DNA of 64,000 bases from a virus (taxonomy: Duplodnaviria; Heunggongvirae; Uroviricota; Caudoviricetes). Under the pieces are notes generated by a model. It saw nothing but the letters and a program-made list of their open reading frames with translations, ran no database searches and was not told the origin of the DNA. Each line of letters begins with the position of its first letter. The stretch's first letter is position 1. The stretch is taken from IMG/VR virus record IMGVR_UViG_2681813318_000003; one strand, given 5' to 3'. Of the stretch, positions 7,979-56,836 are shown in pieces. A program made the translations under genes and the position numbers.

Positions 7979-9235
7979 CTATCGAGAACCACCAAGAATA
8001 ACACGGTTTTTGACTGGATACCTACGATGTACTGGATAGCCCAATGCGTCTGCACTATGCTCAATGCCACCTGTCTTATCCATATCTCGTGTTCCAGGCT
8101 TGTAGATGACTTTTTCCAGTGAATCAATCAAATGCTTGCACTTCGGATCGATATACAGCCGGATATCTCCAGATGCGGTCATCAGCATTCGGTTAACAGC
8201 ATTAACACGATCCGCAATTGGCGGGTGCTTTTTCGAATAATCGACACGTAAGAATCCCTTCTCTTTGAATATGTCGACGTCAGACTCCCCGCGAGCATGT
8301 TGGCGATAAGCACCTGCCGGATCTGGAAATATCGTTATCTGTGATTTCCAGCGCCAGAAGCGTCTCTCAAGCTCATCACAAACCTCTGCCGTGTTAGAGG
8401 AAAAGAGCACCAATTCATCAATTGCCCATAGTTCACCATTTGGCTGAGGTTGCAAAATTACGGAAGACATCGGGTCAATGTTGAAGTCCTGCCCTACCCA
8501 TATAGGTAACCGAGGGTTGAACTGAAGCGGTTTTACATGCACGTTACGATCGAACGGGTAGTAAACGCGCCCGGACATGTTCTCAAAGCTGGCCAGGTAC
8601 TCCTGAGCGAACGATTTGGGGTCCATATCGTTCTTAGCAGCTTCAATTTCCGCCGTAGGTACAAACGGAGAATCGGCAGTTACAAACTGCCAGCTCTTCC
8701 ACTGTCCCTTTCTTTGCAGCTCTACGTTCTGGCCTATAGTCCACAGTTTGTGAAATTCCGAGAAGCCTTTTGGCGTACCAATGATCAGTGCACCGCCGCG
8801 TGTCGATGAAAGAGTAGGTCGTAACACCTTGTACCAAGTGTCAGCCTTCATATCCTGAAATTCATCAAGCACTACAAAATGCAACGCTACGCCGCGCAGA
8901 GTGTCAGGCTTATCAGCACCTTTGAGGGCGATCTCCGAACCGTTCTTCAACACGATTGTCATCGTGGTGTCGTTCTTTTTCCTAACCCACTTACGAGGCA
9001 GAACTTCCTGTAGATCGTCCCACAAAATCTGGCGAGCCATCTGGTAAGTAGGAGCGACATACCAGACCCTTTGCTTTTTTTCCTTTGCCGCCGCACGAAT
9101 AATAGTGGAGATCGACAACCGGGATTTTCCCCAGCGTCGACCAGCACAAACAACTTTAAATCGATGCGGAGACTGGAAGACTTTCATCTGTCCAGAATGC
9201 AGTTGCACAAGACTGAGCGAGGACGGGATTGCCAT
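7979..9235 (-). CDS. Terminase large subunit
   Basis: N-terminal Walker A-like VVCAGRRWGKS, ATPase plus nuclease size class, start overlapping the stop of the upstream small-subunit gene. Confidence 0.7.
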   Translation of the reverse strand: MAIPSSLSLVQLHSGQMKVFQSPHRFKVVCAGRRWGKSRLSISTIIRAAAKEKKQRVWYVAPTYQMARQILWDDLQEVLPRKWVRKKNDTTMTIVLKNGSEIALKGADKPDTLRGVALHFVVLDEFQDMKADTWYKVLRPTLSSTRGGALIIGTPKGFSEFHKLWTIGQNVELQRKGQWKSWQFVTADSPFVPTAEIEAAKNDMDPKSFAQEYLASFENMSGRVYYPFDRNVHVKPLQFNPRLPIWVGQDFNIDPMSSVILQPQPNGELWAIDELVLFSSNTAEVCDELERRFWRWKSQITIFPDPAGAYRQHARGESDVDIFKEKGFLRVDYSKKHPPIADRVNAVNRMLMTASGDIRLYIDPKCKHLIDSLEKVIYKPGTRDMDKTGGIEHSADALGYPVHRRYPVKNRVILGGSR

Positions 9236-9867
9236 TATTCGTCCTCCCCTTCACTTCCATCATCTGTCGCATCAAATTCGCTTAGAGCTTCTTCTTCCAA
9301 CGTCTCAAGCAATTCGTCATCGATGATTTCAGGCTCGTCGTCTTCCTGACGTAATTTCGCCACCTGGGAAGGCGTAAGCTCACCAAATACCAGATTCGGA
9401 ATTTCTTCCTCGTCATTTTCCGCATGATCCATGCCCAATGCTTTGGACGAAACTTCAAAGCATTTTGCAAGGGTATTACTGGCTCTCTGTAAGCTCTTGA
9501 GAGAATCCTCAATCGCCCCTAAAGGCTTACCCTCACGTTTGGCCGTAGTGACTTCGACCATCACCATCTGCCCCAACGCATACGCCCAGCCGTCATAACG
9601 TGTACGACGTTCTTCTATCTTTTCTGCACGGGCTTTAGCGCGAAGCTCTGCGTCAGATTTAAGAGACTCACGAACCATCTTCCCAACAGAGTCCGCGCCT
9701 TTCTCTAATCCTCGCTTTTTGAAATGTCTGGAGAGTGTTTCACGACGAATGCCGTACTCTTCCTCCAGCTTTGAGAGTGTATATTCGCCTGACGTCCATT
9801 TGGCTTCAGCTTCGGCCCACTCCGCTGGTGTCAGGCGAGTTTTTACCTCGTCTTTTTCGACCGTCAT
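9235..9867 (-). CDS. Terminase small subunit (DNA-binding, acidic C-terminus)
   Basis: 210-aa ORF directly upstream of and translationally coupled to the large subunit; SD AGAGGGA before ATG 9867. Confidence 0.5.
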   Translation of the reverse strand: MTVEKDEVKTRLTPAEWAEAEAKWTSGEYTLSKLEEEYGIRRETLSRHFKKRGLEKGADSVGKMVRESLKSDAELRAKARAEKIEERRTRYDGWAYALGQMVMVEVTTAKREGKPLGAIEDSLKSLQRASNTLAKCFEVSSKALGMDHAENDEEEIPNLVFGELTPSQVAKLRQEDDEPEIIDDELLETLEEEALSEFDATDDGSEGEDE

Positions 9868-10338: not shown

Positions 10339-11229
10339 TTATGCCGGTAAAGCAATTTCTAACGGTTTATCCAAAGGTTGTTTGTCGAATGCCAGCAGTG
10401 GCAGCGTGTCAGGCAGTCGACGGCCAAAGTCAGGGTTTCGGTACACACCATACAACGGAGACGTAAAGCTCAGGTTGTGAATGTCCTTGAGCAGCTTCAC
10501 AATGCTGGCCTCGTCCACCAGACTGTCGGCAATGTCCTGAATCGTCGTGCCACGATTCCGCCCAGCTTTTGCCAGGGAACTGTTCTTGTGGTAGTCCGCC
10601 ACCAGATCACGCAGTGCACGGCGACGACGAGACTCGCTCATTGCGAACAACTCTTTGACGATCGCCTCGTTATCACCCGGGTCGGAACGGAAATGGCGCT
10701 GGAATACACGCAGTGCACTTTCATAGCTCTTCGGTCGCTCAGGGCGGATGAACTTAAACCCTGCTTTCATGGCGAAGGGATTGTATTTGCTCATCGAGGA
10801 CTGGATCTCAATGATTGGCCGGTCATGCATCCTGCTAACCAGGTTAATCATTCGATAAGAGACGCCTACGCCACGATACTGAGTATCCACAACTGAGCGA
10901 CTGATCACCGCAAAGTTGTTATTCACGTACCGACCCCAGTACTGGTTAGCCACGGTGGTATTAGTGGTTGGTTTCAACTTAGGAAACATGCGGTGGCGAG
11001 GTGCCAGCAGTAGTTTCGGGTAAGCCATAACCACGACGCCCACCAGACGGTCATCAAGTTCGCAGCGATAGTAAGTTGGCGCGAAAGGTTTGCCGTCTGT
11101 TTTGTAGTGAAGCGACTTAAGAGCGTGCCAGTCCTCTACAGTTCCCTTTGTGACAGTCATTCGCTCCAGAAAGTCCAGATGACGCGGAAACTCTTCAGGG
11201 CGGTAGCGTTTAATGATGATGTCCGTCAT
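10339..11229 (-). CDS. GNAT-like acetyltransferase-fold protein (tentative)
   Basis: Contains Q-Y-R-G-V-G-V-S resembling GNAT motif A (R/Q-x-x-G-x-G/A); translationally coupled to the upstream ABC ATPase gene. Confidence 0.35.
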   Translation of the reverse strand: MTDIIIKRYRPEEFPRHLDFLERMTVTKGTVEDWHALKSLHYKTDGKPFAPTYYRCELDDRLVGVVVMAYPKLLLAPRHRMFPKLKPTTNTTVANQYWGRYVNNNFAVISRSVVDTQYRGVGVSYRMINLVSRMHDRPIIEIQSSMSKYNPFAMKAGFKFIRPERPKSYESALRVFQRHFRSDPGDNEAIVKELFAMSESRRRRALRDLVADYHKNSSLAKAGRNRGTTIQDIADSLVDEASIVKLLKDIHNLSFTSPLYGVYRNPDFGRRLPDTLPLLAFDKQPLDKPLEIALPA

Positions 11230-11891
11230 AAATGAACCTCATCATGACTACCATTGTGATATTCCACCTTCACGCGTTCTTTGTAGTGCTTGGTGATCTG
11301 CATATCCGGGCGCAGCGCGTTCTTCAGGTCTTCGTGAGTCGTCGCCACCATTACCGTCGCACCAACCTTTCGAGCGGCACGCTGGAGGTTAGATGCCACA
11401 ACCTGAGCGGTTACACGGTCTAGAACAGCACCGAACTCGTCAGCAGCCCACACTTTAGCGCCTGACTCAATCAGTTTGGCAATCTTGAGACGATATTTCT
11501 GACCGTCTGACATTTCAGAAGGCTTGCGAACAAACAGATATGCATCGTTCAGACCAGCCATAGATAACAACCCAAGCGCATCGCTGGTCGTTTTGCCCAA
11601 CTGATCGATGACGTTAACCTCATTATCGAAGGTAAAATCATCGATGGAGGCTACAGACAGCCCTTCATCCTTCATCTGTCGTTGCAACTCGCGCAGCACA
11701 ACGGATTTGCCGGAACCGGATTGGCCGGTGATGTACACCACATCGCCCTGCTTCACTTCCAGCTCCAGATTGTCGTAAAGCGTCCACTCTTTTTCGTCCA
11801 GGCCAAGCCCGAACGACTCAGCGATTTCCAACGTGCGCGTGGTTTTATTTACGCGTGTCTGAAACGATACGTTGATGATGTATTTGCTCAT
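11226..11891 (-). CDS. Stand-alone ABC-type ATPase (no transmembrane partner)
   Basis: Walker A GQSGSGKS, ABC signature-like MSDGQKYRL, Walker B VWAADEF, H-loop ATTHEDL; 221 aa. Confidence 0.6.
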   Translation of the reverse strand: MSKYIINVSFQTRVNKTTRTLEIAESFGLGLDEKEWTLYDNLELEVKQGDVVYITGQSGSGKSVVLRELQRQMKDEGLSVASIDDFTFDNEVNVIDQLGKTTSDALGLLSMAGLNDAYLFVRKPSEMSDGQKYRLKIAKLIESGAKVWAADEFGAVLDRVTAQVVASNLQRAARKVGATVMVATTHEDLKNALRPDMQITKHYKERVKVEYHNGSHDEVHL

Positions 11892-12589
11892 ACAGCCATC
11901 TCCCCGGAAGAGATCTTCTCCGCATATGCCACAAATGCGTCTACCCCGCTTTCTCCCGTCATTTCTTCCATGTGGGCAAGCAAATCACCAACAACAATGG
12001 CAGAGCCAGCAGGAAGCGTTTTAAAGCCCAATACGTCGACAACACGTACTTCTTCCGCTGCAACTTCACGACTGATCTCGGTGTGTTCATCCTTCTGTCG
12101 TTTAGTTTCTTCGCCAAGATCGATAACTAGCGAGTCGGTGTCCATTTCTTCTGTCATGCTGCCAACGAGAACATTCAACTCACGCTCTTCAAAGCCGAAA
12201 ACCTCGATATCGTCCAGAACAAGCGACTCAAGCTCTTTCTGTAGCTTAATTGCATCGTAATCAATGCTGGCAAGTCGGTTATCTTCAAGGCGCTTCGCAC
12301 GAACCTCATCATCACTGAGATCATCGCGAACAATAACCGGTACGCGCTCAAGTCCAGCAAAAATTGCAGCCTCACGGCGGCCGTGGCCAGTAATAATTAC
12401 GTCGTTCTTATCGACCGTAATTGGCTGGTCAAATCCGCGCTTTTTAATGGCTGCGGCTAGATCTCGGATCTGCTGTTCATCATGCTTTTTGGCATTCATC
12501 TCATAGGGAATAAGATCTGCCGGGTCGCGATATACGATTTCAAACTTTTTGGTCATTACATACGCTCCTTGTAGTAGTCGACCAGCCAC
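11888..12589 (-). CDS. ParB-like nuclease domain protein
   Basis: ParB/Srx-type motif ITGHGRREAA (GxxRxxA) near the N-terminus; acidic C-terminal half. Confidence 0.55.
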   Translation of the reverse strand: MAGRLLQGAYVMTKKFEIVYRDPADLIPYEMNAKKHDEQQIRDLAAAIKKRGFDQPITVDKNDVIITGHGRREAAIFAGLERVPVIVRDDLSDDEVRAKRLEDNRLASIDYDAIKLQKELESLVLDDIEVFGFEERELNVLVGSMTEEMDTDSLVIDLGEETKRQKDEHTEISREVAAEEVRVVDVLGFKTLPAGSAIVVGDLLAHMEEMTGESGVDAFVAYAEKISSGEMAV

Positions 12590-13236
12590 ACCAGAGCCTC
12601 ACCAGCGTTCTCCATTTCATTACCGGTGTTAATAGCCTGCTCTTTGATGATGTTTTTTATGGTTTCTGCAACACGATCTGACGCATCGAAAGTTACTTTG
12701 AAGCGCATGGTCTGATGTTCCGCCCCCACACGTTCGGTTTTCTCTCGTTTGTCGGTATCGACAGGCTCATCACTACCACGAGACAACGCCTCCAGTGCTT
12801 CAAGGTCGATTGCCGCCTCTTTTGCTAAAACCATCGAGATTTCGTCGTCATACGGGGCGATTTCAGACAGTTGATAGTCAAGTTCTGACTGAATTTCTTC
12901 AATGAAGCGTTGCAATGCGATTTGGTCGTCTTCACCGTATCGCTCGTTGTCCACCAGTGACATCTGTTTAGCTACGACATCGCTAATTTTGCCCACAGAA
13001 AGCACTGGAACCGTTGAAATTCCTTGCTCAATAGCGGCACGCCAGCGATGTTCGCCGCCGAGGATTTCAAAAAATCCATCTTCAAGTTCACGAGCCAAAA
13101 TTGGCTTAAAAAAGCCCAATTTTTCGATAGAACCTTTCAGTTTTTCAAAATTCTGCGCACCAACCGAATTGGTGTTCCAGGTATTCGGGCGAAGGTTGGC
13201 AACATCAACCTGCAAAATCGTGATTTTTACATCCAT
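12556..13236 (-). CDS. ParB-like nuclease domain protein (second copy)
   Basis: ParB motif ILGGEHRWRAA; start trimmed to ATG 13236 (MDVKITI); paralogous architecture to the adjacent gene. Confidence 0.55.
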   Translation of the reverse strand: MDVKITILQVDVANLRPNTWNTNSVGAQNFEKLKGSIEKLGFFKPILARELEDGFFEILGGEHRWRAAIEQGISTVPVLSVGKISDVVAKQMSLVDNERYGEDDQIALQRFIEEIQSELDYQLSEIAPYDDEISMVLAKEAAIDLEALEALSRGSDEPVDTDKREKTERVGAEHQTMRFKVTFDASDRVAETIKNIIKEQAINTGNEMENAGEALVWLVDYYKERM

Positions 13237-15654: not shown

Positions 15655-16179
15655 ATGACAACCAAAGATATTACCTACGGTATCCAAGCTGAACTCTTGC
15701 CGCGAGATTACACTAACGTTGAAAAACTACTGATGTTCTGGCGCAGAGAACAAATTCCTGTAAGGGTCACTCTCGAAGATGGTCAGGCGTTTTGCATGTA
15801 CGTTTATGGCCTCATGCCATCTCGCAACAAAGTTGACCTTTGCCCAGCCCCTTTTGACAAAGAAAATCGTATAAGGCTCCCACTTGAACGCATTAGTACA
15901 ATTGAATCAGGTGTGGTTGACAGTATCGCTCACGATTTCAAAGGTCGATTAACAGTTCACCCTGATTATGTCGATAATCGGCCATCACGCCGCGATTTTT
16001 TTGCAATTTGCAACCAAGCCTACAAAGCAAACAAATCTATAAGGGTGTACATGGCGGATGGCCGTGAAATTGAGGGGGTGTCAGCAGGCGCAGATGCTTG
16101 TCAGGTTACACTACGTGTCGAGAACGGTAGAAAAATAGTTGTTTTGTTCGATTGGGTTGAACGAATTTTGCCTTTTTGA
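15655..16179 (+). CDS. Hypothetical protein
   Basis: ORF 15577..16179 trimmed to ATG 15655 (MTTKDITYG), which is coupled to the preceding stop TGA. Confidence 0.4.
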   Translation: MTTKDITYGIQAELLPRDYTNVEKLLMFWRREQIPVRVTLEDGQAFCMYVYGLMPSRNKVDLCPAPFDKENRIRLPLERISTIESGVVDSIAHDFKGRLTVHPDYVDNRPSRRDFFAICNQAYKANKSIRVYMADGREIEGVSAGADACQVTLRVENGRKIVVLFDWVERILPF

Positions 16180-17929: not shown

Positions 17930-17980
17930 AATCGAGCGCTCACTATGGGCGTTTTTTTCGTTTCCAATACTTCCACCATA

Positions 17981-18010
17981 ACGCGCCAATGATGGCGCTT
18001 TTTTTATTGT
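17981..18010 (+). terminator. Rho-independent terminator
   Basis: GCGCCAATGATGGCGC hairpin followed by T8; a related hairpin with a T7 run sits at 17933-17958. Confidence 0.6.
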
Positions 18011-18384
18011 CTTTGACTCAAGCCAACAACATAAAAATAAGCGCCAAAATAACGCCATAGACGCACTTTTATATCCTTACCAGTACATACCCATTACTTA
18101 GCGCATTAACGCACTTAAATCGCGTTATATTGCGTTATGGTGTATGGTTAATCATTGGCTTTTATTCTTGCTATGTGATCCGCGTTTAATTGTCGGCGCG
18201 GATCGGCATTTTGTTTTGTTCCGTATCCGCTCGCGTATTATGTGCGCGTGATTTTTCACATAATCACACCACTTAATCACGTATGTGATTACGCTACGAA
18301 AGAAATCTGGATGTCTCAGGCGACGAAAGTCATCATAATTTTCCCCGCTCACCTGTCCGACAACCGCTGGTTGGATTCCACCAG

Positions 18385-18535
18385 CTTCCCGATGTTTTTT
18401 CTATATAAAGGCGAATGCAGCCGTTTCCCGAAAAAATCCTGGCCGTTCCCCGTCGGCTCATGAATACGTTCCTCGCCGTTTCTGAAAATTTCCCTGCGGC
18501 AGCTGGTGGCTATATAGAAAGGGCCGTTTCTGGCC
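18385..18535. repeat. Cluster of about five degenerate direct repeats CCGTT(T)CC(C)nGAAA
   Basis: CCGTTTCCCGAAAAAA, CCGTTCCCCG, CCGTTTCTGAAAATTTCCCTG, CCGTTTCTGG seen in tandem; second cluster at 21550-21690 in the same orientation. Confidence 0.5.
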
Positions 18536-18545
18536 CTCTTCTCAG

Positions 18546-19028
18546 TTACACGCCATCAAGGATGTGGATGCGGTTGCTGGCGTATACATTCAGCATAAAG
18601 TTAGCGCAAAACAGTTTCCATGTATCAACGCCAGCGGTATACGTAATGTTTTTGCATTTAATCGCATTGTTGGCGATCCGCATCCCCTGCGATACTGCTT
18701 CATCGTCGGAAAATTTGAACGACGATTGAGTTTTAATCCAGACAGAAATCTGCGTAGCAAACTCAATCAGCTTGGACTGGCAGAATCGCCCGGAGCGTAC
18801 CGGGAAGACGAACGTTCCGAATCCAGAATTTACCACATACGCTTTCTCAAATACCCGCGAGTAACGACGATTACCAATGATGTCACGTGCAATAATGCAT
18901 TTTTCTTGTGCTGACAGTTCTACCGTCTCATTGTCGCGCCATGCACCAAGTACTCGTTTTTCAATGTCAGAGAACGTTACAGCGATATTGCCATGTGCGG
19001 GTGCGTTTACAGTAGCGATAAAATTCAT
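18546..19028 (-). CDS. Hypothetical early protein
   Basis: 160-aa ORF; class A promoter/leader motif immediately upstream (19045-19086). Confidence 0.4.
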   Translation of the reverse strand: MNFIATVNAPAHGNIAVTFSDIEKRVLGAWRDNETVELSAQEKCIIARDIIGNRRYSRVFEKAYVVNSGFGTFVFPVRSGRFCQSKLIEFATQISVWIKTQSSFKFSDDEAVSQGMRIANNAIKCKNITYTAGVDTWKLFCANFMLNVYASNRIHILDGV

Positions 19029-19378
19029 GATTAATTCCTTATCGTAAATAACAAATTGTTTTCTTGTTGGTGTTAATTATCGTTGTACGAATAAGGCGTC
19101 AAAGTGGAAAGTTGCGGTAGCCGGACGGGAACAGGTGTGTTTGTCGGTTGCCTGGAGGTAAGAGGTTGGTGTTTTTAGCCTGCGGGAAACAGGATGGTCA
19201 TTTAAGACCACCAATGGTGATGGCCTTAATAATTATCGCCCGATTACGCTAAGGATCTTTTCCTCAACTGATTTGTTGTTGCGACTAAACTGCCTTGCGT
19301 ATCTGATGACAGCAGAGGCGTTTTGCTTTCTGACCATCTCGGCTCTTTCCTTCTGGCGTTTCTTGAAATCGCCCATAT

Positions 19379-19753
19379 TTACCACCAGGCGCAGAAGGTC
19401 AGTCTGTTATTGTGAAAGTCGTGGTTCCTGATCAGGTCTTCCACAAGTTTTTTCAGCTTATCCACGTCATGCCAGTAACCTTCGTCGTACTCCTGACTGC
19501 CGAAGAAAAAACCTTCCCGAGTAGGCAAGTACTCTTCGCAATTGCTTTCGTTTATGTGCATCAAATGAGCCTTCAGAAAACAAATGTCATTCATCGTTAA
19601 TTCTAAAAGCTCACAATTTTCGACTTCACCTACGTTGCGCTCCATCCACCCAACGAGCGCATTGAACTTACGGAAGTAAGCAACCTGCTTTCTGGATGCC
19701 TCGTTATTCAGATCGTTTTTAGGCTGTGTCTCGATATAGATATCAAGTCCCAT
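19379..19753 (-). CDS. Hypothetical early protein
   Basis: ORF trimmed to ATG 19753 (MGLDIY) with SD AAGGAAACC; class A-like motif at 19807-19827. Confidence 0.4.
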   Translation of the reverse strand: MGLDIYIETQPKNDLNNEASRKQVAYFRKFNALVGWMERNVGEVENCELLELTMNDICFLKAHLMHINESNCEEYLPTREGFFFGSQEYDEGYWHDVDKLKKLVEDLIRNHDFHNNRLTFCAWW

Positions 19754-19836
19754 GATGGTTTCCTTATTAAGTTGCTTCAGTGAAATCATTTTCACAAATC
19801 AGATAAGGCAGAAAACAAATTGTTATCGGGCATAAT

Positions 19837-19862
19837 AAAATGGCGCGGTTTGCGCGCCATTT
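19837..19862 (-). terminator. Rho-independent terminator
   Basis: GGCGCGCAAACCGCGCC hairpin followed by ATTTTATT on the minus strand, downstream of gene 19871..20266. Confidence 0.55.
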
Positions 19863-19870
19863 AAAGAGGA

Positions 19871-20266
19871 TTAAGCGAATACGCTTTCAGGGATTAAGGT
19901 GTCGGCAGGAATGCCAGAGGTAATGCGCAGACCGTACTGGCCAATCCAGGTGGTGCTGGTGTTCAGGCTGGAGGCGAATACGGTGTTAACCATATTCATC
20001 ATGGTTTCAAACACCTCTTCATCAACCTGGCGGAAGTAGTTCTCGATTTTCAGCAGCAGCGGGTCAGTTGCATCGAGAATGGACTGGTATTGAGTCGCGT
20101 ACTCGCCGCCGGAGGCATCACCTTTACGCACGATCGTACTGGCCTGTACTTCGGCACCAGTTTCGGTGTTGTACGTAACAACGGTGATTTTTGCCACATT
20201 CTTACCTTCGGCGGTTTCAGAGGCATAGTAAACATCAACTGTCAGTTTTTCGCGTTTAACGGTCAT
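19871..20266 (-). CDS. Hypothetical early protein
   Basis: 131-aa ORF with SD GGAGAG; class B palindrome and a terminator lie upstream. Confidence 0.4.
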   Translation of the reverse strand: MTVKREKLTVDVYYASETAEGKNVAKITVVTYNTETGAEVQASTIVRKGDASGGEYATQYQSILDATDPLLLKIENYFRQVDEEVFETMMNMVNTVFASSLNTSTTWIGQYGLRITSGIPADTLIPESVFA

Positions 20267-20330
20267 TTCACTCTCCGTAGTGTCTTGATTATTTTTCTAT
20301 TTTATAATCGTAGGTATGTACTTACAATAC

Positions 20331-20358
20331 AAAAAAGCCCCGTAAGGATGGCGGGGCT
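20331..20358 (-). terminator. Rho-independent terminator
   Basis: AGCCCCGCCATCCTTACGGGGCT hairpin followed by TTTTTTG on the minus strand. Confidence 0.6.
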
Positions 20359-20392
20359 GTCGTACTGTCGACTAATTACCACTTGCACATTA

Positions 20393-20704
20393 TCAGGCTA
20401 TTGCCATCACTGATGCTCTCTGAATTTCTTGCTGGGCCACGCGGTTAACTTCCATCAAGGCCAGTTCGAGCTGATGTTCCGGCCACATTCTTTGAAATGC
20501 CACCCATCCTTTTCCACGCTGGCGACGAACATTCATTACATAACGAGTAAAGGTGTTTTTATCGAAAGACACCGCTGTTTCACGGAACAGACGAATAGAA
20601 GTTCCATTGGCAACGATGTCTAGCAAAGTTAATTGAGCAACCAGTGCAGGCTTCTCTTTTCTCTTCTGGTCTTTGTCCAGACCAAGAACCAATGATTTTT
20701 TCAT
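20393..20704 (-). CDS. Hypothetical early protein
   Basis: ORF trimmed to ATG 20704 (MKKSLVLG) with SD ACGGAG; class A motif overlaps the leader. Confidence 0.4.
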   Translation of the reverse strand: MKKSLVLGLDKDQKRKEKPALVAQLTLLDIVANGTSIRLFRETAVSFDKNTFTRYVMNVRRQRGKGWVAFQRMWPEHQLELALMEVNRVAQQEIQRASVMAIA

Positions 20705-20857
20705 CACAACTCCGTAAACAACTTGTTTTCTCAATGGCGTAAATAATACCAGTAAGAAAACGGCTACAAAGCATAATGATCAGGTGCATGATCGATATGC
20801 AGGTTCCTCCCTGCGGCTATAGAGAAATTAAGCCAGCATTGCTGGCTTTGGTTGGGG

Positions 20858-21187
20858 TTACTCGAATACTTCAAGAAACTCCTGAACGTCCCAATGCTGG
20901 ACGAGGTGAAGATAGACCTTAGAAATCACGTCATTTTCGCTATCGCATGTGAAGTAGTACTTCTGGCTGCGGTTGTATGTGTCCACACAAAATTCGCTCA
21001 TATCCATAAAGTCAGCATCTTCACCCATGTCGCAAATCATCAAAGCAGGTGCGTCATCACGAGTCATCAGCTCAAGCACCCACCGCGAATTGATCAGAGT
21101 GGAAGACCAACCTTCTAACTCATAAAACTGATCAAACTCTTTTTGAGTTAATTTCTTGATTTGGTTGATGTCGATATTTGCAAACAT
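20858..21187 (-). CDS. Small acidic protein (candidate anti-restriction or DNA-mimic type)
   Basis: ORF trimmed to ATG 21187 (MFANIDI) with SD AAGGA; D/E-rich, about 109 aa; class A motif upstream. Confidence 0.4.
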   Translation of the reverse strand: MFANIDINQIKKLTQKEFDQFYELEGWSSTLINSRWVLELMTRDDAPALMICDMGEDADFMDMSEFCVDTYNRSQKYYFTCDSENDVISKVYLHLVQHWDVQEFLEVFE

Positions 21188-21198
21188 AAAGCAATCCT

Positions 21199-21236
21199 TA
21201 AACAACTTGTTTTCTCGTTGGTGTTATTATCGCAAT
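21199..21236 (-). promoter_or_regulatory. Class A promoter/leader motif (representative copy)
   Basis: Minus-strand reading TTGCGATAATAACACCAACGAGAAAACAAGTTGTTTAA: extended -10-like TGnGATAAT followed by palindrome AAACAAnTTGTTT 10-30 nt before the ATG. Related copies near 19045-19086, 19807-19827, 20714-20750, 24007-24075 (two), 31872-31892 (inverted), 34786-34820, 35501-35537, 36230-36268, 46450-46492 (two), 58371-58408. Confidence 0.5.
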
Positions 21237-21549
21237 AACGCACAGGCGAAAAAGGATTTTATTCCGGTGAATGTTGTTTTGGCAGTGAGTTTTCAGGTTC
21301 AGTATCGAGTACACTTTTTACATTATTCTGATTTAGTGGCCGAAGGTGGCTGGTGGGCAGAATAATCCTCTCCCCGAAAACCTACTGAAATCGATTGTGA
21401 CCCGTTGGCTGTCTGGCACAATTACGCTGTAGCTGGGCATTCAGAGGGAATCCAGCGGTAAGTAAGTTCGCCTGCACGTGAGCGCCTCTCTTCTTCCCGC
21501 ACATTACAGGTGGGTAGCCGCAACTCTCCCTCACGCTATACCGGTACGC

Positions 21550-21690
21550 CGCCGTTCCTGAACCGGCATCGAGCCTTTTCCCGAAATCCACACAGGCAAC
21601 TCGACCGTTTCCCTGAAAACCTCCAGCCGTTCCCCGAAGGCAACCCAGCCGTTTCTGTAGCGGGATGCAACCTTTTCCCTGTATGGACCG
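21550..21690. repeat. Second cluster of CCGTT(T)CC(C)nGAA(A) direct repeats
   Basis: CCGTTCCTGAACC, TTTTCCCGAAATCC, CCGTTTCCCTGAAAACC, CCGTTCCCCGAAGG, CCGTTTCTGTAGC, TTTTCCCTGTATGG; same orientation as cluster 18385-18535. Confidence 0.5.
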
Positions 21691-21699
21691 AAGGCTGAC

Positions 21700-22750
21700 C
21701 GTAGGGGTGTTACGGGGGATAAAATCAGGAGTTGAATAAATACGAAAAAGGAGGCGACACCCCTCCTTCCCTCCCCACTTATACATACCTGGCTTCTTCG
21801 CTATACACGTTGTGTTTTCTGCGTGTTTTATCTGTCTCAACCTCTCTATGGGCGTTAATGCACACTCCTTCCAGAACGTTCTATACGGCGACTATTTCTG
21901 TTGGTGAATTGGGTGTGTTGTTTTCTCTGTCGGTGTATGTGGTTTCGTTAGTTTTGCGGTGGTTCTTCTATGGGGTGTTCTCGTCGTTTTGGTGATTGTT
22001 CTTCTCCGTCTATGGAGTAATGGCAGGTGGGCGATTCCTTTCGTTATTGTGTTTGAGTTGTTTGTCTGGAGTGCGTGAAGGGCTTTTGTAGTTATTCGTG
22101 TATTGGGTAATGGCGTTTCCCGTGATTGTTATGTTTCGTGTCTTTTGGGATTGAGAGAAACCTTGCGGTTACAGGCTTCGTTGGGGTTTCAGTGATTCTG
22201 ATGTTTCTTCGCTGTTTGGGTAATGGCGTGTCGTGGGTATCGCGCGTATGAATGTTTTCGGATTGCCTGTGAAAGTTAGGTTGGTTCTCCGGTAGCCTGG
22301 GAAGAAGAGGTGGGTCTTTTCGGTAGCCTGCCATAAAGAGGTTGGTTGTTTTGGGAATGGCATATGTGTTATTTAGTTGTTTTGTTATGCCTGAAAATAA
22401 GTTGTTTATATGGTTATGTAACGCAACGGGAACGATTTTGAGCGTGTGTTTTTGTTGGTAGTGTGTTGGGTCGTCTGTGGTGAAAATTGGACGCTGTGGC
22501 GCTGTCTGCTGCGTAGAATTACGGGTATAAGCAGTGATGTGTGAAAACGTCAATTTTTTAGACCAAATCGGGTGAAAGCGTTGATGTTTCGTTGATCTGT
22601 TATTCAGTTGTTTTCTTGATTGTATAAACAACTATAACTTATTGATATTTAAGGATGTGATTGCGGGTATGGAAGGGGAGTAGTGGCGATCAACGGATTC
22701 TTATAGAAAAGAATCAAATTGTGACCGCCATTATCAATGAGTTGCAACCG
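21700..22750. other. About 1-kb non-coding tract with strong G+T skew on the plus strand
   Basis: No credible ORF; recurring GGTAATGGCG-type units at roughly 100-bp spacing (about 22010, 22095, 22215) and CGGTAGCCTG..AGAGGTGG duplicated. Confidence 0.4.
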
Positions 22751-24155: not shown

Positions 24156-26189
24156 TTACTTAACCTGGTGGCCAGGTTTAGCACCAGCATCCGGGCTTAA
24201 CAGGAAGATATCTTTCCCGCCGGGGCCAGCAGCCATCACCATGCCTTCAGAGATACCGAAGCGCATTTTACGCGGAGCCAGGTTAGCCACCATAATTGTG
24301 TGACGACCAATCAGTGCCTGTGGGTCTGGATAAGCAGAACGGATGCCTGAGAAGACATTACGCTTTTCACCACCGAGATCCAGCGTCAGGCGCAGCAGCT
24401 TGTCAGAACCTTCAACAAACTCTGCGTTTTCAATCAGCGCCACGCGCAGGTCAACTTTAGCGAAGTCGTCAAAGGTGATGGTTTCCTGAATCGGGTCGTC
24501 TGCCAGTGGGCCAGTTACCGGTGCGGCTGTGGCTTTCACTTCTTCTTTGGATGCTTCCACCAGTGCTTCCACCTGTTTCATATCGATACGGTTATACAAT
24601 GCCTTGAACGGATTCACTTTATGGCCCAGCAGCGGTTGCTGGATACCATCCCAGGTCAGTTCTGTATTCAGGAATGCTTCTGCACGTTCAGTCAGTTTCG
24701 GCAGTACCGGTTTCAAGTACGTCATCAGCACGCGGAACAGGTTAATGCCCATAGAGCAAATCGCCTGCAGATCGGCATCGCGTCCTTCCTGCTTCGCCAC
24801 CACCCACGGAGCCTGTTCATCAACATAGCGGTTAGCCAGGTCAGCCAGTGCCATGATTTCACGGATAGCTTTACCAAATTCGCGGCTTTCCCATGCTTCG
24901 CCAATCACTTCAGCGGCATCAGTAAAGGTTTTGTACAGTTGCGGGTCAGCCAGTTCGCTTGCCAGCACGCCGTCAAAACGCTTGTTGATAAAGCCTGCAT
25001 TACGGGAGGCCAGGTTAACCACTTTGTTCACGATATCGGCATTCACGCGCTGAACGAAATCCTCCAGGTTGAGATCGATATCATCAATGCGCGAAGAGAG
25101 TTTCGCAGTGTAGTAGTAACGCAGGCTGTCGGCGTCAAAATGATTCAGCCAGGTGCTGGCTTTAATAAAGGTGCCGCGAGACTTGGACATCTTCGCGCCG
25201 TTCACCGTCACATAGCCGTGAACAAACAGGTTGGTCGGCTTGCGGAAGTTGCTGCCTTCCAGCATGGCAGGCCAGAACAGGCTGTGGAAGTAAACAATAT
25301 CTTTACCGATGAAGTGGTACAGCTCGGCGGTGGAGTCTTTCTTCCAGTATTCATCGAAGCTGGTGGTATCGCCGCGCTTGTCGCACAGATTCTTGAAGGA
25401 ACCCATGTAGCCAATCGGCGCGTCCAGCCAGACGTAGAAATATTTGCCCGGCGCGTTCGGAATTTCAAAACCGAAGTAAGGCGCATCGCGGGAGATATCC
25501 CACTGTTGCAGGCCGGATTCAAACCATTCCTGCATTTTGTTCGCCACCTGCTCCTGCAACGCGCCGCTGCGGGTCCATGCCTGCAACATTTCGCTGAAAG
25601 AAGGCAGATCAAAGAAGAAGTGTTCGGAATCACGCATTACCGGGGTAGCGCCAGAAACCACCGATTTCGGCTCGATCAATTCAGTCGGGCTATATGTTGC
25701 GCCGCAGACTTCACAGTTATCGCCGTATTGATCTGGCGCTTTACATTTCGGGCAGGTGCCTTTTACAAAACGATCCGGCAGGAACATGCCTTTTTCCGGG
25801 TCGTACAACTGAGAGATAGTGCGGTTTTTAATAAAACCGTTCTCTTTCAGGCGAGTATAGATAAGCTCAGACAACTGACGGTTCTCTTCGCTGTGCGTCG
25901 AGTGATAGTTGTCATAGCTGATGTTAAAGCCTGCGAAATCAGTCTGATGCTCATGACTCATTTCGCCAATCATCTGCTCCGGTGTGATACCAAGCTGCTG
26001 TGCTTTCAGCATGATCGGCGTACCGTGGGCATCGTCGGCACAGATGAAATTAACCTCGTGGCCGCGCATTCGCTGGTAACGAACCCAGACATCAGCCTGG
26101 ATGTGCTCCAGCATATGGCCGAGGTGGATTGAGCCGTTAGCGTACGGCAGCGCGCACGTCACCAGAATTTTCTTCGCGACTTGGGTCAT
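24156..26189 (-). CDS. metG: Methionine--tRNA ligase (host-type)
   Basis: 677-aa protein starting [31 protein letters not shown], class I HIGH motif, zinc knuckles CPKC/CEVC, KMSKS motif. Near-identical (a handful of substitutions) to Escherichia coli MetG as recalled from memory, not from a database search. The longer ORF to 26318 is an upstream read-through. Confidence 0.95.
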
Positions 26190-26346
26190 AGTAGGCATTA
26201 CTTCTTTGTAGTGAAAAGGGGCTTGATAGTAACAAAATGGCCTTATGTCTGCCATGTGATAACAGCATTTCTCATAAATGATTAAATGTCGTAGCTGGAG
26301 TACACTACAAGGCGACAATTGCGCAAATTAAAATAAAGGAGACGGG

Positions 26347-27447
26347 ATGAGCGAGTCCAAATCGCCGGATGCCCTGAGAGCAATGGTAGCCGGTACGCTG
26401 GCTAATTTTCAGCACCCAACCCTGAAACACAACCTGACTACGCTTAAAGCGTTACACCATGTTGCGTTGATGGATGACACACTGCATGTCGAACTAATCA
26501 TGCCTTTCGTGTGGAATAAGCCTTTTGAAGACCTGAAAGAGCAATGTAGTGGTGATCTGCTCCGTATCACTGGCGCAAAGGCTATTGACTGGAAGCTGTC
26601 GTACAACATTGCCACGCTTAAGCGCGTCAAAAACCAACCAGGCATTAATGGCGTTAAGAACATTATCGCCGTCAGCTCAGGCAAGGGCGGCGTGGGTAAA
26701 TCCTCCACGGCGGTAAACCTGGCACTGGCGTTGGCTGCTGAAGGTGCGAAAGTTGGTATTTTGGATGCCGATATCTATGGTCCATCAATTCCAACCATGC
26801 TGGGCGCGGAAAACCAACGTCCAACCTCACCTGACGGTACTCACATGGCACCTATCATGTCTCATGGCCTGGCAACCAACTCTATTGGTTATCTGGTCAC
26901 CGACGACAATGCAATGGTGTGGCGTGGACCGATGGCCAGCAAGGCGCTGATGCAGATGTTGCAGGAAACTCTATGGCCTGATCTGGACTATCTCGTTCTC
27001 GATATGCCGCCGGGCACTGGTGATATTCAGTTGACGCTGGCGCAGAACATTCCTGTAACTGGTGCGGTTGTGGTAACTACGCCGCAAGACATCGCGCTGA
27101 TCGATGCGAAGAAAGGCATTGTGATGTTCGAAAAAGTCGAAGTGCCGGTACTGGGTATCGTCGAAAACATGAGTGTGCATATTTGCAGTAACTGCGGTCA
27201 TCACGAGCCAATTTTTGGCACCGGTGGCGCACAGAAACTGGCCGAGAAATACAACACGCAGTTGTTAGGCCAAATGCCACTTCATATCTCTCTTCGTGAA
27301 GATCTGGATAACGGAACACCAACCGTTATTAGTCGTCCAGATAGCGAATTTACGGCTATTTATCGTGACCTCGCAGATCGCGTTGCTGCCCAAATGTATT
27401 GGCAAGGTGAAGTAATACCTGGCGAAATCGCATTCCGCGCAGTGTGA
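26347..27447 (+). CDS. apbC: Fe-S cluster carrier ATPase Mrp/ApbC (host-type)
   Basis: 366 aa, P-loop SGKGGVGKS, CxxC motif ICSNCGHHEP; divergent from metG with a 157-bp intergenic region as in the enterobacterial chromosome. Confidence 0.95.
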   Translation: MSESKSPDALRAMVAGTLANFQHPTLKHNLTTLKALHHVALMDDTLHVELIMPFVWNKPFEDLKEQCSGDLLRITGAKAIDWKLSYNIATLKRVKNQPGINGVKNIIAVSSGKGGVGKSSTAVNLALALAAEGAKVGILDADIYGPSIPTMLGAENQRPTSPDGTHMAPIMSHGLATNSIGYLVTDDNAMVWRGPMASKALMQMLQETLWPDLDYLVLDMPPGTGDIQLTLAQNIPVTGAVVVTTPQDIALIDAKKGIVMFEKVEVPVLGIVENMSVHICSNCGHHEPIFGTGGAQKLAEKYNTQLLGQMPLHISLREDLDNGTPTVISRPDSEFTAIYRDLADRVAAQMYWQGEVIPGEIAFRAV

Positions 27448-46528: not shown

Positions 46529-48844
46529 TCAGATTTTGCAGGCTCCGTCGCACTCATCTTCTGGCTCGACGGCTACAGCTTGCGTCAGTGGATTCTGCGG
46601 TTCGTCGTCATCACGCTTTCCTGCCCCATCTCTGGTGTTGTGGTAGTAAAGCGTTTTAACTCCCATCTTGTAGGCGAGAAGCAAATCTGACAGTAGCGTC
46701 ATCATTGGGACTTTATCGCCTTCAAAGCGAGAAGGGTCATAGTTGGTATTGGCTGAAATAGCCTGGTCAAAGAACTTCTGGATGATCGCCACCTTTGTCA
46801 GATAGCCGCGGTTGTCCGGCATATCCCACAGGTATTCATACTGTTCCTTCAGTTTTTCAAACTCAGGCACGACCATCTTAACGATGCCGTCCTTAGAAGA
46901 TTTCACCGACACCGGGCCACGAGGCGGTTCGATGCCGTTGGTGGAATTAGTGATCTGGCTGGAAGTCTCGCATGGCATTTGTGCCGTCAGTGTGGAGTTG
47001 CGAAGGCCGTATTTTGCAATACGTTCACGCAGTTCTTCCCACGGCATCTTTAACTCAAAGTTGGTTTCGCCACTTTCGTCTAATGAAGAACGGTAATGGT
47101 CGATCGGCAACTGACCAATTGCGTACTTGGTCTGCTCAAACCAGTCACACTCACCTTTTGCTTCAGCAAGTCGGCAGCTGGCATCAAGAAGGTAATACTG
47201 GATAGCTTCGAACGTTTCATGCACCAGTTTATTGCCAGCGGTATCAGAATAACGAACGCCATTCTTTGCCAGGTAATAAGCAAAGTTGGTTACACCAATT
47301 CCCAAGCTACGACGAGCTTTGGCAGGCACTGCGGCTGCCTCCATCGGATAGTCTTGATAATCCAGTAACGAATCCAGTGCAGCAACGGCATAGAACGCCA
47401 CCTCTTTAAGAGACTCCAGTGAACGGATGGCTCCGAGGTTAAAAGCGGATAAAGTGCATAGCGCGATCTCACCGTTCGGGTCGTCGGTAAATGCCAGTGG
47501 ACGAGTGGGTAGAGTGATCTCCATGCACAGGTTTGACTGGCGGACAGGTGCAAGAGCAGGAATGAAAGCGCCATGCTCATTAATATGATCGACGTTCGCA
47601 ATATAAATTCGGCCCGTGGACGCTCGTTCCTGCATCAGAGATGAGAACAGCTCAATGGCAGACACTGACTTCTTGCGAATTGAATCATCGGCTTCGTATT
47701 TATGGTACAGCTTTTCAAACAGATCCTGGTCTGTGAAGAAGGCTTCGTACATATCAGGCACATCATGCGGGCTGAACAGAGTGATGTTCTCGCTTCTGAC
47801 GAGTCGACGGTACATTAGACGGTTACTCATGACGCCGTAATCAAGATGGCGAACGCGGTTTTCATCAATACCACGGTTATTTTTCACCACCAGCAGACTT
47901 TCAACTTCAAGATGCCAGATCGGGTAAAACGCTGTTGCTGCGCCACCACGAACACCACCTTGCGAACAAGATTTAACAGCCGTCTGGAAATGCTTCAGGA
48001 ATGGAATAACTCCGGTATGGGTGGCTTCACCATTGCGGATCTCGCTGCCCAGCGCACGGATACGGCCAAAACCAATACCAATTCCAGCACGACGTGAAAC
48101 GTAGTCGATAATTGCGGCTGAAGCTGCACTAATCCCTTTCAGACTATCGCCAGACTCAATCAGCACACAACTGGAGAACTGACGGGTTGGAGTACGGACG
48201 CCGGCCATGATTGGTGTGGGCAGAGACAGTTTGAACGTACTTGTAACGTCATAGAAACCTTTGACCATCTCCATACGTGTTTTACCAGCGCAGTCGTCTT
48301 CCCAATTCTGGAACAGACACATGCCTACCAGCATATAGATATGTTGCGGCCCCTCATGAATCTCACCAGTAACACGGTTTTGAACGAGGTATTTGCTTTG
48401 CAACTGCACCGTAGCTGCATAGCCAAAAAGATCGTCACGTTTCGGCTTAATGTAATTGCCGAGTTCTTCGATCTCTTCAAACGAATAATGTGTCAGCAAA
48501 TCCTTGTCATAAACGCCCTTGTTAACGTTCTTGACAATGTGTTGGTAGAAGTTCGGATAGTCGTAACGACCGAAGGCATCTTTGCGGATTTTAAAAATGT
48601 TCAGGCGGGCAGCCACCTGTGAGTAATTTGGTGCTTCTGGTGAGATCAAATCAGCGGCAGATTTAACCAAAGCCTCATGCAACTGGCTGGTGGTAATCCC
48701 ATCAAAAATGCTGGCCGCAGCTCCCATTGCTACAGCGGATGCGCTTACACCACGAATGCCTTCTACGCCATACATTACGACGCGGTTGTATTTTTCTTCG
48801 GATAACGGCTCTGTTTGGCCGTTACGTTTTACGATGCTTATCAT
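46529..48844 (-). CDS. nrdA: Ribonucleotide reductase class Ia large subunit
   Basis: 771 aa, N-terminal ATP-cone region and active-site region NLCMEI, C-terminal Cys pair; directly upstream of nrdB. Confidence 0.9.
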   Translation of the reverse strand: MISIVKRNGQTEPLSEEKYNRVVMYGVEGIRGVSASAVAMGAAASIFDGITTSQLHEALVKSAADLISPEAPNYSQVAARLNIFKIRKDAFGRYDYPNFYQHIVKNVNKGVYDKDLLTHYSFEEIEELGNYIKPKRDDLFGYAATVQLQSKYLVQNRVTGEIHEGPQHIYMLVGMCLFQNWEDDCAGKTRMEMVKGFYDVTSTFKLSLPTPIMAGVRTPTRQFSSCVLIESGDSLKGISAASAAIIDYVSRRAGIGIGFGRIRALGSEIRNGEATHTGVIPFLKHFQTAVKSCSQGGVRGGAATAFYPIWHLEVESLLVVKNNRGIDENRVRHLDYGVMSNRLMYRRLVRSENITLFSPHDVPDMYEAFFTDQDLFEKLYHKYEADDSIRKKSVSAIELFSSLMQERASTGRIYIANVDHINEHGAFIPALAPVRQSNLCMEITLPTRPLAFTDDPNGEIALCTLSAFNLGAIRSLESLKEVAFYAVAALDSLLDYQDYPMEAAAVPAKARRSLGIGVTNFAYYLAKNGVRYSDTAGNKLVHETFEAIQYYLLDASCRLAEAKGECDWFEQTKYAIGQLPIDHYRSSLDESGETNFELKMPWEELRERIAKYGLRNSTLTAQMPCETSSQITNSTNGIEPPRGPVSVKSSKDGIVKMVVPEFEKLKEQYEYLWDMPDNRGYLTKVAIIQKFFDQAISANTNYDPSRFEGDKVPMMTLLSDLLLAYKMGVKTLYYHNTRDGAGKRDDDEPQNPLTQAVAVEPEDECDGACKI

Positions 48845-54918: not shown

Positions 54919-55145
54919 ATTATTCACATATCCACAGGATAGATCCTAATAAAGAGATCCATAGATAGATCCTTGTATAGATCAAATAAGATCCCCGATC
55001 GCTGTAAGCCGCGCCACGACTGGTCTGAAGCCATGTTCATGTATGCTACCAGCGGTAATTGATAGTCTGTCAACGGTTCGCCGTATGCTGCCAACTGTTT
55101 TTGGTATGCTGCCAGCGGCAAATCAAGTATGCTGTCAGCGGTTGA
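54919..55145. promoter_or_regulatory. Plasmid-type replication origin: tandem DnaA boxes, GATC-rich repeats, upstream iterons
   Basis: TTATTCACATATCCACA (two overlapping DnaA-box matches), six GATC sites within about 60 bp in AGATCC units, then four iteron copies GTATGCT(G/A)(C/T)CAGCGG at about 55041, 55083, 55104, 55127. Confidence 0.7.
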
Positions 55146-55162
55146 ATGACAAAGGTGTCCAC

Positions 55163-56257
55163 ATGTCCACAAAAAATAAAAAAGGTAAAAATAACAAAGA
55201 AGTAGAAGATAATCTCGACAACTTTGAAGAAGGTTCCCTTGAATTGTACACAGGGGAACTTGTCCCTAATAGCAACAATACAGTCCAACCAATTGCGTTG
55301 ATGCGGCTGGGGTTGTTCGTGCCCACGCTCAAGGGGACAAAATACAGCAAGCGTAACAAGCCAAATGAGATCGATGCTTCAAAGGAGCTTGTTCAGCTCG
55401 AAGTAGCCCGTTCTGAAGGTTATTCCGATATCAAGATAACCGGTCCTCGTCTCGACATGGATCATGATTTCAAAACGTGGGTGGGCGTTGTGCGTTCGCT
55501 GGCAGAATACGGCGAACCTAACGGTCGTGTCGAGTTAAGCATCACGAAATTTGCGAAGTTTTGTGGCTATCCATCGTCACAGATCCGCAAAACACTCCGC
55601 GACCGGCTTACAAACAGTCTTTTGAAGATCATGCGTACAACTCTGTCTTTTCAGAGAACGTATGAAGAAAAGAACGTCGACGGCTCTAACAAGATCTCGC
55701 TTCTGATGGTGCACCTCATCAATAGCGTGGACTACAACGAGCAGAAAGATACGGTGGTGTTCTATGCAGAACCGAAGCTGGCCGAACTATATCGCTTTGA
55801 CCATAAGGTTCTTTTGCAGTTAAAGGTTATCAATAAGCTACCACGCAAAGAAACAGCACAGGCTCTGTACACCTTCATCGAAAGTCTTCCAACCAAGCCT
55901 GCGCCGGTATCGCTTGCTCGATTACGTGCGCGACTCAATTTGAGTAGCAGGAATGTCAGCTCGCAGAATCAGACTATACGTAACGGCTTAAAAGCTCTCC
56001 AAGATTTGGGCTATCTCGAATACAGCGAGATTAAGCGAGGGCGGTCGATCTATATCCAGATTCACAGCCGCAATCCAAAACTCAAAGTCGCACCGCCAAA
56101 ACCTGAAGACATCGAACCCAAAAAACCAGATGAGAAAGCTGGGGAAATTGATGCCAAACAGAACATTATCAACAAGATAACCGAACTTTCGCAGAATTTG
56201 ACGCCTGAAAATATCAAGATGATTGAGATCCTTTCCAATAGTCTCAAACTGCTTTGA
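55163..56257 (+). CDS. repA: Iteron-binding replication initiator (RepA-like)
   Basis: 364-aa ORF flanked on both sides by same-orientation iterons; start taken at ATG 55163 (MSTKNKKGK) after SD AAGG; architecture matches P1-type incC-repA-incA replicons. Confidence 0.7.
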   Translation: MSTKNKKGKNNKEVEDNLDNFEEGSLELYTGELVPNSNNTVQPIALMRLGLFVPTLKGTKYSKRNKPNEIDASKELVQLEVARSEGYSDIKITGPRLDMDHDFKTWVGVVRSLAEYGEPNGRVELSITKFAKFCGYPSSQIRKTLRDRLTNSLLKIMRTTLSFQRTYEEKNVDGSNKISLLMVHLINSVDYNEQKDTVVFYAEPKLAELYRFDHKVLLQLKVINKLPRKETAQALYTFIESLPTKPAPVSLARLRARLNLSSRNVSSQNQTIRNGLKALQDLGYLEYSEIKRGRSIYIQIHSRNPKLKVAPPKPEDIEPKKPDEKAGEIDAKQNIINKITELSQNLTPENIKMIEILSNSLKLL

Positions 56258-56792: not shown

Positions 56793-56836
56793 GACTATGA
56801 AATATGACTGCGGCACGTGCCGCAGTCAGTTTGCAT

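Follow-up and report, generated by a model that had tools for sequence, protein, structure and literature searches.

The 64,000-nucleotide stretch of tailed-phage DNA analyzed here (IMG/VR record IMGVR_UViG_2681813318_000003; hereafter the window) belongs to an E. coli phage-plasmid about 110 kb long, which is of the SSU5/pHCM2 type according to the annotation of its best match, plasmid pUTAK-6-1. We found that a short unit, GCCGTTTCC, which we call X, is repeated in two arrays that flank a block of small genes. The X arrays are a real and probably important family-wide cis-element, and their features point to candidate sites for a multimeric sequence-specific DNA-binding protein. A phased array of protein-binding repeats is in itself a well-known kind of feature. 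What is new here is the X motif, its conservation throughout the family, the placement of two arrays around an exchangeable block and their separation from any cognate gene. We found no description of the X repeats in the literature, and the region is without annotation in the records.

The arrays and the features directly associated with them are as follows:

18420..18497, + strand: X array 1, with full copies of G-CCGTTTCC-C at 18421, 18443 and 18476 and the half-site TTTCCCT at 18490
18520..18535, − strand: terminator-like hairpin of the 160-aa gene, GGGCC-GTTTCT-GGCCC, then a T-rich run on the − strand
18546..21187, − strand: block of five small genes (160, 124, 131, 103 and 109 aa) between the X arrays, from open reading frames and annotation
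21536..21545, + strand: element CTATACCGG (CTRTRCCGR in relatives), whose end is at a constant 11 bp (gap of 7 to 8 bp) to the left of the first array 2 copy
21551..21680, + strand: X array 2, with six copies at 21552, 21574, 21605, 21627, 21649 and 21671

The initial annotation had placed clusters of direct repeats at these two loci, and reading the sequence bears this out: the core CCGTTTCC(C) is present as four copies and one half-site at 18421–18531 and as six copies at 21552–21679, all on the + strand. Its count of five small genes in between agrees with the RefSeq annotation of the near-identical plasmid. In array 1, the copies at 18421, 18443 and 18476 read CCGTTTCCC, CCGTTCCCC and CCGTTTCT, and the sites are spaced by 22, 33 and ~11 bp; the spacings in array 2 are 22, 31, 22, 22 and 22 bp. 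The fifth X-like copy near array 1, CCGTTTCT at 18524, sits in the loop of the hairpin that follows the 160-aa gene and is out of phase with the other copies. The stem of this hairpin is preserved in relatives by two-sided changes (GGGCC/GGCCC to GGGGC/GCCCC).

Could such clusters simply reflect a motif that occurs at background frequency, as the initial annotation had cautioned? The relaxed heptamer CC[GT]TT[TC]C shows no overall enrichment in the window (28 observed vs 32 expected), but it forms same-strand clusters of four and six sites, whereas the largest cluster in 300 first-order Markov simulations had three. The stricter CCGTT[TC]C has 13 sites in 64 kb on both strands, eight of which fall inside the two clusters, all on the + strand. 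No third group of at least three X sites is present in the window or in the rest of pUTAK-6-1, a near-identical plasmid of 111 kb that served as the complete-element reference (window position 18200 corresponds to its position 85838). A chance origin of the arrays is ruled out by the simulations together with the conservation described below. When 185,579 genomes were scanned for pairs of X cores 20–24 bp apart, the matches listed were unrelated chance occurrences or CRISPR-like sequences and were uninformative.

The locus is widespread. A 3.7-kb stretch around it shares 98–99% identity with ~110-kb E. coli plasmids and 97% with phage Cyrano, and it is matched in 242 of 5,426 complete E. coli genomes, being plasmid-borne in every case. 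In PLSDB, 711 plasmids match the locus, with hosts that include Klebsiella, Escherichia, Enterobacter, Yersinia and Salmonella. Both X arrays hold syntenic positions in some 90 related loci, the range extending from Escherichia to Moellerella. Clusters of at least three sites are confined in these loci to the strand that carries the 216-aa gene, and most loci have two of them. Close relatives with both arrays include a divergent E. coli plasmid, E. fergusonii, Citrobacter, Salmonella Typhi pHCM2, two Enterobacter, Cronobacter and two Klebsiella elements; array 1 is kept in 10 aligned relatives. In two more distant elements, L050 and L243, both arrays are present though the neighboring proteins are only 51–53% identical and the flanks cannot be aligned. 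Both are also found in the Klebsiella plasmid hvKP859, which has another replicon type, and in Moellerella wisconsensis (Morganellaceae). In all four of these lineages the flanks are not alignable and CCGTTTCC(C) alone is retained, at both places. A Serratia element (L248) has no X array in the 17.5 kb read; a homolog of the 216-aa protein and a close homolog of the ribbon–helix–helix (RHH) protein discussed below are present in it. In Yersinia pestis pMT1, array 1 is retained, and an IS1541-associated deletion has removed array 2 together with everything up to the homolog of window position 48.9 kb. Array 2 is therefore dispensable for plasmid replication there.

What exactly is conserved? 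A frequency matrix built from 182 distinct site instances defines the unit as the asymmetric G-CCGTTTCC-C, with information at background level outside this core. The core TTTCnnGAAA with partial dyad symmetry, proposed in the initial annotation, is therefore not conserved: its GAAA half occurs in only two of the window copies and is maintained across neither copies nor lineages. Among alignable relatives, identity in the core is 0.91–0.92 compared with 0.79–0.87 in the spacers (0.91 vs 0.79 for array 2). The spacings pile up at 22 (40 of 94), 31, 33–34 and 44 bp, and the Rayleigh R is ~0.7 for periods of 10.5–11.5 bp; these 94 spacings, in 33 distinct patterns, share phylogeny and so are not independent. 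In Klebsiella, a 9-bp deletion converts the 31-bp spacing to 22 bp and thus retains the ~11-bp phase. Such an architecture is typical of nucleoprotein arrays of the RHH/ParR and iteron types. The orientation on one strand, the phase and the conservation confined to the core together point to a protein that binds DNA and covers a single helical face.

The phase also bears on a reading in which the repeats act in RNA, either as a motif bound by, for example, an FljA/Hfq-like protein or as a C-rich Rho-loading zone that stops antisense transcription. The arrays are indeed C-rich on the + strand (C 0.34–0.37, G 0.21) and adjoin terminator-like hairpins, and the gene for an FljA-like RNA-binding protein lies at a distance of 2.2 kb. 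However, ~11-bp phasing would be meaningless in RNA, Rho loading needs no strict 9-mer, array 1 lies behind several + strand terminator-like hairpins, and the repeats have no Rfam match even at E ≤ 1. We consider an RNA-level role very improbable. Known RNA families and type III antitoxin or CRISPR-like arrays were also rejected, with no Rfam match and with copies that share only an 8–10-nt core. The view that X represents sites for a multimeric DNA-binding protein, put forward in the initial annotation, thus gains support from the single orientation, the ~11-bp phase, the core-only conservation and the absence of an RNA family match. None of the three specific roles listed there (centromere-like partition site, looping operator pair, P4-like ori/crr pair) is confirmed, but the centromere is the best candidate among them.

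The initial annotation had noted that the window lacks a partition ATPase. For ParA this is correct. However, the window does encode two ParB_N proteins and an ABC-type ATPase, and a ParA–RHH pair is encoded elsewhere on the element: a type Ib ParA of 222 aa (MipZ/ParA Pfam, PHROG 164) and a 117-aa RHH-like protein at 47051–48078 of pUTAK-6-1. Neither upstream nor downstream of parA–RHH did we find repeat arrays or X sites, in E. coli or in Moellerella, and therefore the centromere of this partition pair must lie elsewhere. The RHH β-strand KSRTMS(L/I/M)ED and the start of helix 2, (T/S)RSDV, are conserved in E. coli, Serratia, hvKP859 and Moellerella, while overall identity of the protein across these lineages drops to 29%. 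Such retention of the predicted DNA-reading residues fits an unchanged site. Between E. coli and most Klebsiella elements the RHH protein is ~91% identical, compared with ~61% for the small terminase and ~80% for the 160-aa protein. Moreover, the par pair and X array 2 occur in the same set of plasmids, with pMT1 lacking both. A truncated RHH homolog in a 262-kb Klebsiella plasmid is flanked by insertion sequences and is uninformative.

These observations suggest a possible scheme. The two X arrays would be helically phased sites for one sequence-specific protein encoded by the phage-plasmid itself, and this protein would coat one DNA face and assemble into a higher-order complex at two fixed places. 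The binder may be the 117-aa RHH protein, the partner of the 222-aa ParA, and binding would then serve segregation, with the X arrays as a parS-like centromere. The X sites would be remote from the par operon, as in phage-plasmid N15, and might in addition regulate or insulate the small-gene block that they flank. We tentatively favor this possibility, that is, X arrays as the remote centromere of the ParA–RHH system that may double as regulators of the flanked block, while regarding it as far from assured. An array of repeated sites is present, as in known centromeres, and both an ATPase and a centromere-binding protein are predicted on the element; no such site adjoins the par operon for autoregulation.

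Comparison with known partition systems cuts both ways. N15 is a phage-plasmid like the present element, and its centromere sites are dispersed, remote from the partition operon sopAB and within regions concerned with phage development. They are single inverted repeats recognized by SopB, a type Ia helix–turn–helix (HTH) ParB, whereas here we see four to six asymmetric direct repeats and the candidate binder would be, by analogy, a small type Ib RHH protein. Centromeres of the parC type (R1, pSK41, pB171 parC1/parC2, the sites of pSM19035 omega) are, like X, short direct-repeat arrays, some in two clusters. RHH-bound parC arrays have a 7-, 11- or 20-bp periodicity (11-bp repeats in R1 parC, 20-bp repeats in pSK41), and RHH dimers coat them cooperatively. 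Unlike X, parC-type arrays lie in or beside the par promoter and autoregulate it, whereas the X arrays are ~40 kb away and none is at the par promoter. As to a second role in regulation, Ravin, Rech and Lane (2008), cited in PMC11652158, report according to their title that the N15 sop partition system also affects phage late-gene expression.

Several points weigh against X as the centromere of the ParA–RHH pair. The arrays are ~38–41 kb from the par operon, and the par promoter has no X site; it carries instead the element-wide AACAAnTTGTT operator. Type Ib centromeres normally adjoin and autoregulate their own par operon. The HTH of the putative small terminase is conserved equally well, and therefore the conservation of the RHH residues is not discriminating. 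A centromere role gives no reason for the bracketing of a variable block or for the pairing with a second repeat family, Y, 0.7 kb away. The retention of array 1 in pMT1, which is without the par pair, is uninformative and lends no support. Finally, the literature is silent on X repeats.

The ParB_N proteins offer another candidate binder. They are encoded at 11226–13236 (226 and 222 aa) together with the ABC-type ATPase. These genes are part of a four-gene cluster at 10339–13236 (− strand), directly upstream of terS, which encodes the two ParB_N proteins, the ABC-type ATPase and a 296-aa protein and is found in every lineage examined, including pMT1. X and Y could be the loading sites of the two paralogs, which would either work as KorB/Noc-like clamps or silencers or condense the locus. 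The numbers agree, two repeat families at the same two loci ~0.7 kb apart versus two ParB_N paralogs, and pMT1 retains array 1 along with the cluster. On the other hand, besides ParB_N these proteins have no detected HTH or other DNA-binding domain, phage proteins of this kind are often related to nucleases or modification (judging by PHROG neighbors), and the pairing of X with them is pure inference. We regard this assignment as improbable.

Do the X arrays belong to a replication origin? The element encodes a RepB-family initiator (window 55043–56257, from the pUTAK-6-1 annotation). More than 20 RepA iterons, TATGCTGTCAGCGGT, at 55021–55162 and 56256–56809, flank repA and overlap its 5′ end; they are spaced mostly by 21 bp or by multiples of ~10 bp, and this region is the origin and control region of the plasmid phase. 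We rejected X arrays as additional iterons of this Rep3/IncFIB-type RepA: X is GCCGTTTCCC, compared with TATGCTGTCAGCGGT at 55040–55147 and 56256–56794. Nor are the arrays co-inherited with the Rep type, as they persist across three types, including rep_cluster_763 and rep_cluster_2469. The X arrays are thus independent of the replicon, being unlike the RepA iterons in sequence and kept across Rep types.

They could instead be the iteron-like pair of a second, lytic-phase origin and control region, comparable to P4 ori/crr or R6K, in which a phage initiator pairs the two arrays and the strand-skewed 1-kb region next to array 2 serves as the unwinding or R-loop zone. Direct repeats phased at 22 bp are an iteron hallmark, and the RepA iterons of the same element are at 21 bp. 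Moreover, array 2 adjoins the largest conserved non-coding region of the element, which is strongly strand-skewed, and both array 2 and this region are absent from the plasmid-only derivative pMT1. The element also has its own replisome, with a UvsW-like helicase, RNase H, primase, DnaB-like helicase and Pol III alpha, in addition to the tail, capsid, portal and terminase genes annotated in pUTAK-6-1. However, no initiator-like gene is near the arrays, the replication genes are more than 25 kb away, neither GC skew nor gene orientation switches at the site, and the distance between the arrays is highly variable. No obvious AT-rich unwinding element or DnaA boxes were noticed beside the arrays, although no scan for DnaA boxes was made. 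The likeness to P4 ori/crr and to Rep-iteron origins (P1 incC/incA, F, R6K) lies in two clusters of one repeat that are a few kb apart or flank genes, and in the 22-bp phasing. The two-cluster geometry of P4, with one short repeat clustered at places 1.5–4.5 kb apart, fits. But in P4 an alpha-like primase–helicase initiator is expected beside the repeats, whereas the neighbors here are small proteins and the primase and DnaB-like helicase are far off. X differs from all these origins in having no initiator gene between or beside the arrays, in being unrelated to the element's own RepA iterons and in being kept across Rep types. A lytic origin at the X arrays is, in our estimate, unlikely.

The position of the arrays around the block raises the question of whether they regulate it. 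The gene content of the block differs among relatives, with the distance between the arrays ranging from 1,484 to 4,511 bp (median 3,365 in 56 loci); the smallest block consists of the 160-aa and 103-aa genes only. None of the block proteins has a Pfam match, and they fall into PHROG families without assigned function. For the conserved 103-aa protein, the profile search found no PDB relative and a single-sequence model was unusable, with a predicted local distance difference test (pLDDT) score of 47.6. Every gene of the block comes with a separate promoter and operator that belong to the palindromic AACAAnTTGTT family. This palindrome is matched 17 times vs 4.7 expected and precedes most small genes as well as terS and parA, frequently in the layout GATAAT-N11-GAAAACAAgTTGTTT-Shine–Dalgarno sequence. 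The palindrome probably serves the element's repressor as an operator scattered over the element, as the C1 operators of P1 do. Its sites are as follows:

9909, 9934, 19050, 19814, 20717, 21201, 22396 (window): AACAAnTTGTT sites, first part
24009, 24060, 35504, 36233, 46455, 58374 (window) and ~48125 in pUTAK-6-1 (L002): AACAAnTTGTT sites, second part

X arrays might act on phage early transcription as activator, repressor or insulator sites through leftward promoters. In one variant, array 2 would control the block and array 1 would drive a transcript antisense to the + strand operon; in another, both arrays would loop to silence the block in the lysogen. The first block gene lies 360 bp downstream of array 2; array 1 is at a convergent junction, immediately after the terminator hairpin of the 160-aa gene. 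Between the CTATACCGG element and the first copy of array 2 the distance is constant in all lineages, with identical geometry in the window, Salmonella-type relatives, Klebsiella, L050 and L243; TATA-like elements are located 9–27 nt from the first copy of array 1. The pattern of a strong site plus a weak half-site at 11 bp also resembles tandem sites of winged-helix activators, of which PhoB/OmpR and lambda CII are examples. Against this, neither array has an acceptable conserved sigma-70 −10/−35 pair beside it, the block genes already have a promoter and operator each, the distance from array 1 to the TATA-like element differs among lineages, and no candidate regulator was found. Sigma-54 and sigma-70 promoters beside the arrays were rejected, as no conserved match was seen by inspection, with a software scan for the sigma-70 type only. 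A purely regulatory role thus appears rather unlikely.

A further reading, which we also hold improbable, concerns DNA packaging: X arrays could be recognition sites (pac or cosB-like) of the small terminase and might bound a terminal repeat carrying the small genes that are injected first. In T7, repeat arrays flank the terminal repeat. The gene upstream of terL, at 9235–9867, encodes the putative small terminase, a protein with a psq/CENP-B-like HTH, highly conserved, and a long coiled coil (model pLDDT 77), and there is no repeat array near terS. The X core also has CGTTTCC in common with lambda cosB R sites, which likewise are present as several copies in ~120 bp and are bound by the small terminase. 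However, the small terminase here is not Nu1-like. It has no Phage_Nu1 Pfam or PDB match, and even the best fold matches of its model, HTH domains and a Bacillus prophage protein, are weak. TerL, which matches Terminase_6N and P74-26 TerL, belongs to the T4/P74-26 kind and is not gpA-like. Since TerS and TerL belong to other types, a lambda-type cosB, a possibility prompted by the shared CGTTTCC, was rejected; the arrays are not beside the terminase genes either. Unlike cosB, there are two arrays, in direct orientation only and far from terS (8.5 and 11.7 kb), and the distance between them varies three-fold. The arrays were rejected as genome termini or terminal-repeat boundaries too, as no phage record or IMG/VR contig starts or ends there. 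Contig breaks of related elements cluster ~2.4–3 kb to the right of the arrays, near metG/apbC, and appear to be assembly artifacts because chromosomal homologs exist. The 2.6-kb record of 'Klebsiella phage Kpn_R1' is an arbitrary fragment. In the window, metG (methionyl-tRNA synthetase) and apbC/mrp are full-length and in the chromosomal arrangement at 24156–27447; immediately to the left of these genes, many draft and metagenome contigs from related elements are broken.

Other features near the arrays are listed below:

19112..19204, + strand: Y array 1, with GGTAGCCTGG-N8-GAGGTGGGT repeated three times at intervals of ~30 bp, ~0.7 kb to the right of X array 1
21745..21771, − strand: terminator-like hairpin, then a T run (− strand), immediately to the right of X array 2, where the G/T-rich stretch ends
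21780..22700, no strand assigned: conserved non-coding stretch of ~1 kb adjoining X array 2, G/T-rich on the + strand
22286..22352, + strand: Y array 2, with two copies here but three in relatives, ~0.7 kb to the right of X array 2

The hairpin at 21745..21771 has a stem that is only partially conserved in relatives. The non-coding stretch at 21780–22700 is conserved across genera and has an extreme strand composition (A.18, C.14, G.29, T.39). It includes GGGTAATGGC repeats at about 22017, 22106 and 22218 and a hairpin at 22544–22589, the stem of which is preserved by two-sided changes in a distant lineage. The stretch is contained in 836 plasmid records, mostly without annotation, and has no Rfam match; a gene for a long non-coding RNA and an origin are two possible identities.

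The arrangement of Y next to X is also seen in Klebsiella and Moellerella, but it is uncertain whether the Y arrays are part of the X system. Segmental duplication of the X-to-Y segments was rejected, as 18380–19240 and 21510–22400 are similar at the motifs only. A more speculative and improbable idea combines the X and Y arrays with the 1-kb skewed region into one chromatin-like module, in which a partition-type protein on remote centromere arrays would also set the boundaries of, or silence, an exchangeable early (possibly anti-defense) cassette. If true, segregation would be coupled to the control of accessory genes and to the lysogeny–lysis state.

In clinical Escherichia, Klebsiella, Salmonella, Enterobacter and Yersinia, phage-plasmids of the SSU5/pHCM2/pMT1/pKpn type abound, and some carry resistance genes. 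In the literature we found no account of how these elements segregate, where their lytic replication starts or how their early-gene hotspot is controlled. A motif that is unchanged from Escherichia to Moellerella would mark a key protein–DNA interaction of the family, and the identity of its binder would yield one or more of a centromere (a target for incompatibility or curing), a lytic origin and a master regulator of the variable block. The X arrays are also a simple signature by which these elements can be typed and their cargo hotspot found.

X array 1 is bracketed by a pair of outward-facing Chi sites (GCTGGTGG), at 18378–18385 (− strand) and 18502–18509 (+ strand). The window has 13 Chi sites vs 1.3 expected from composition, a host-like density, and the pair is therefore probably nothing special. 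To the left of array 1, the 600-bp convergent intergenic region contains at least four terminator-like hairpins (17934–18250) with repeated TAACGC / GGCGC; its Klebsiella counterpart is divergent in sequence and comparably repeat-rich. Further left, at 15655–16179 (+ strand), the window encodes an FljA-family protein (Pfam Flag1_repress, E 1e-82), which also has a weak Hfq-like match. FljA represses phase-1 flagellin, acting on fliC mRNA; by virtue of this homology, the protein may be a phage-plasmid-borne regulator of host flagellin or RNA.

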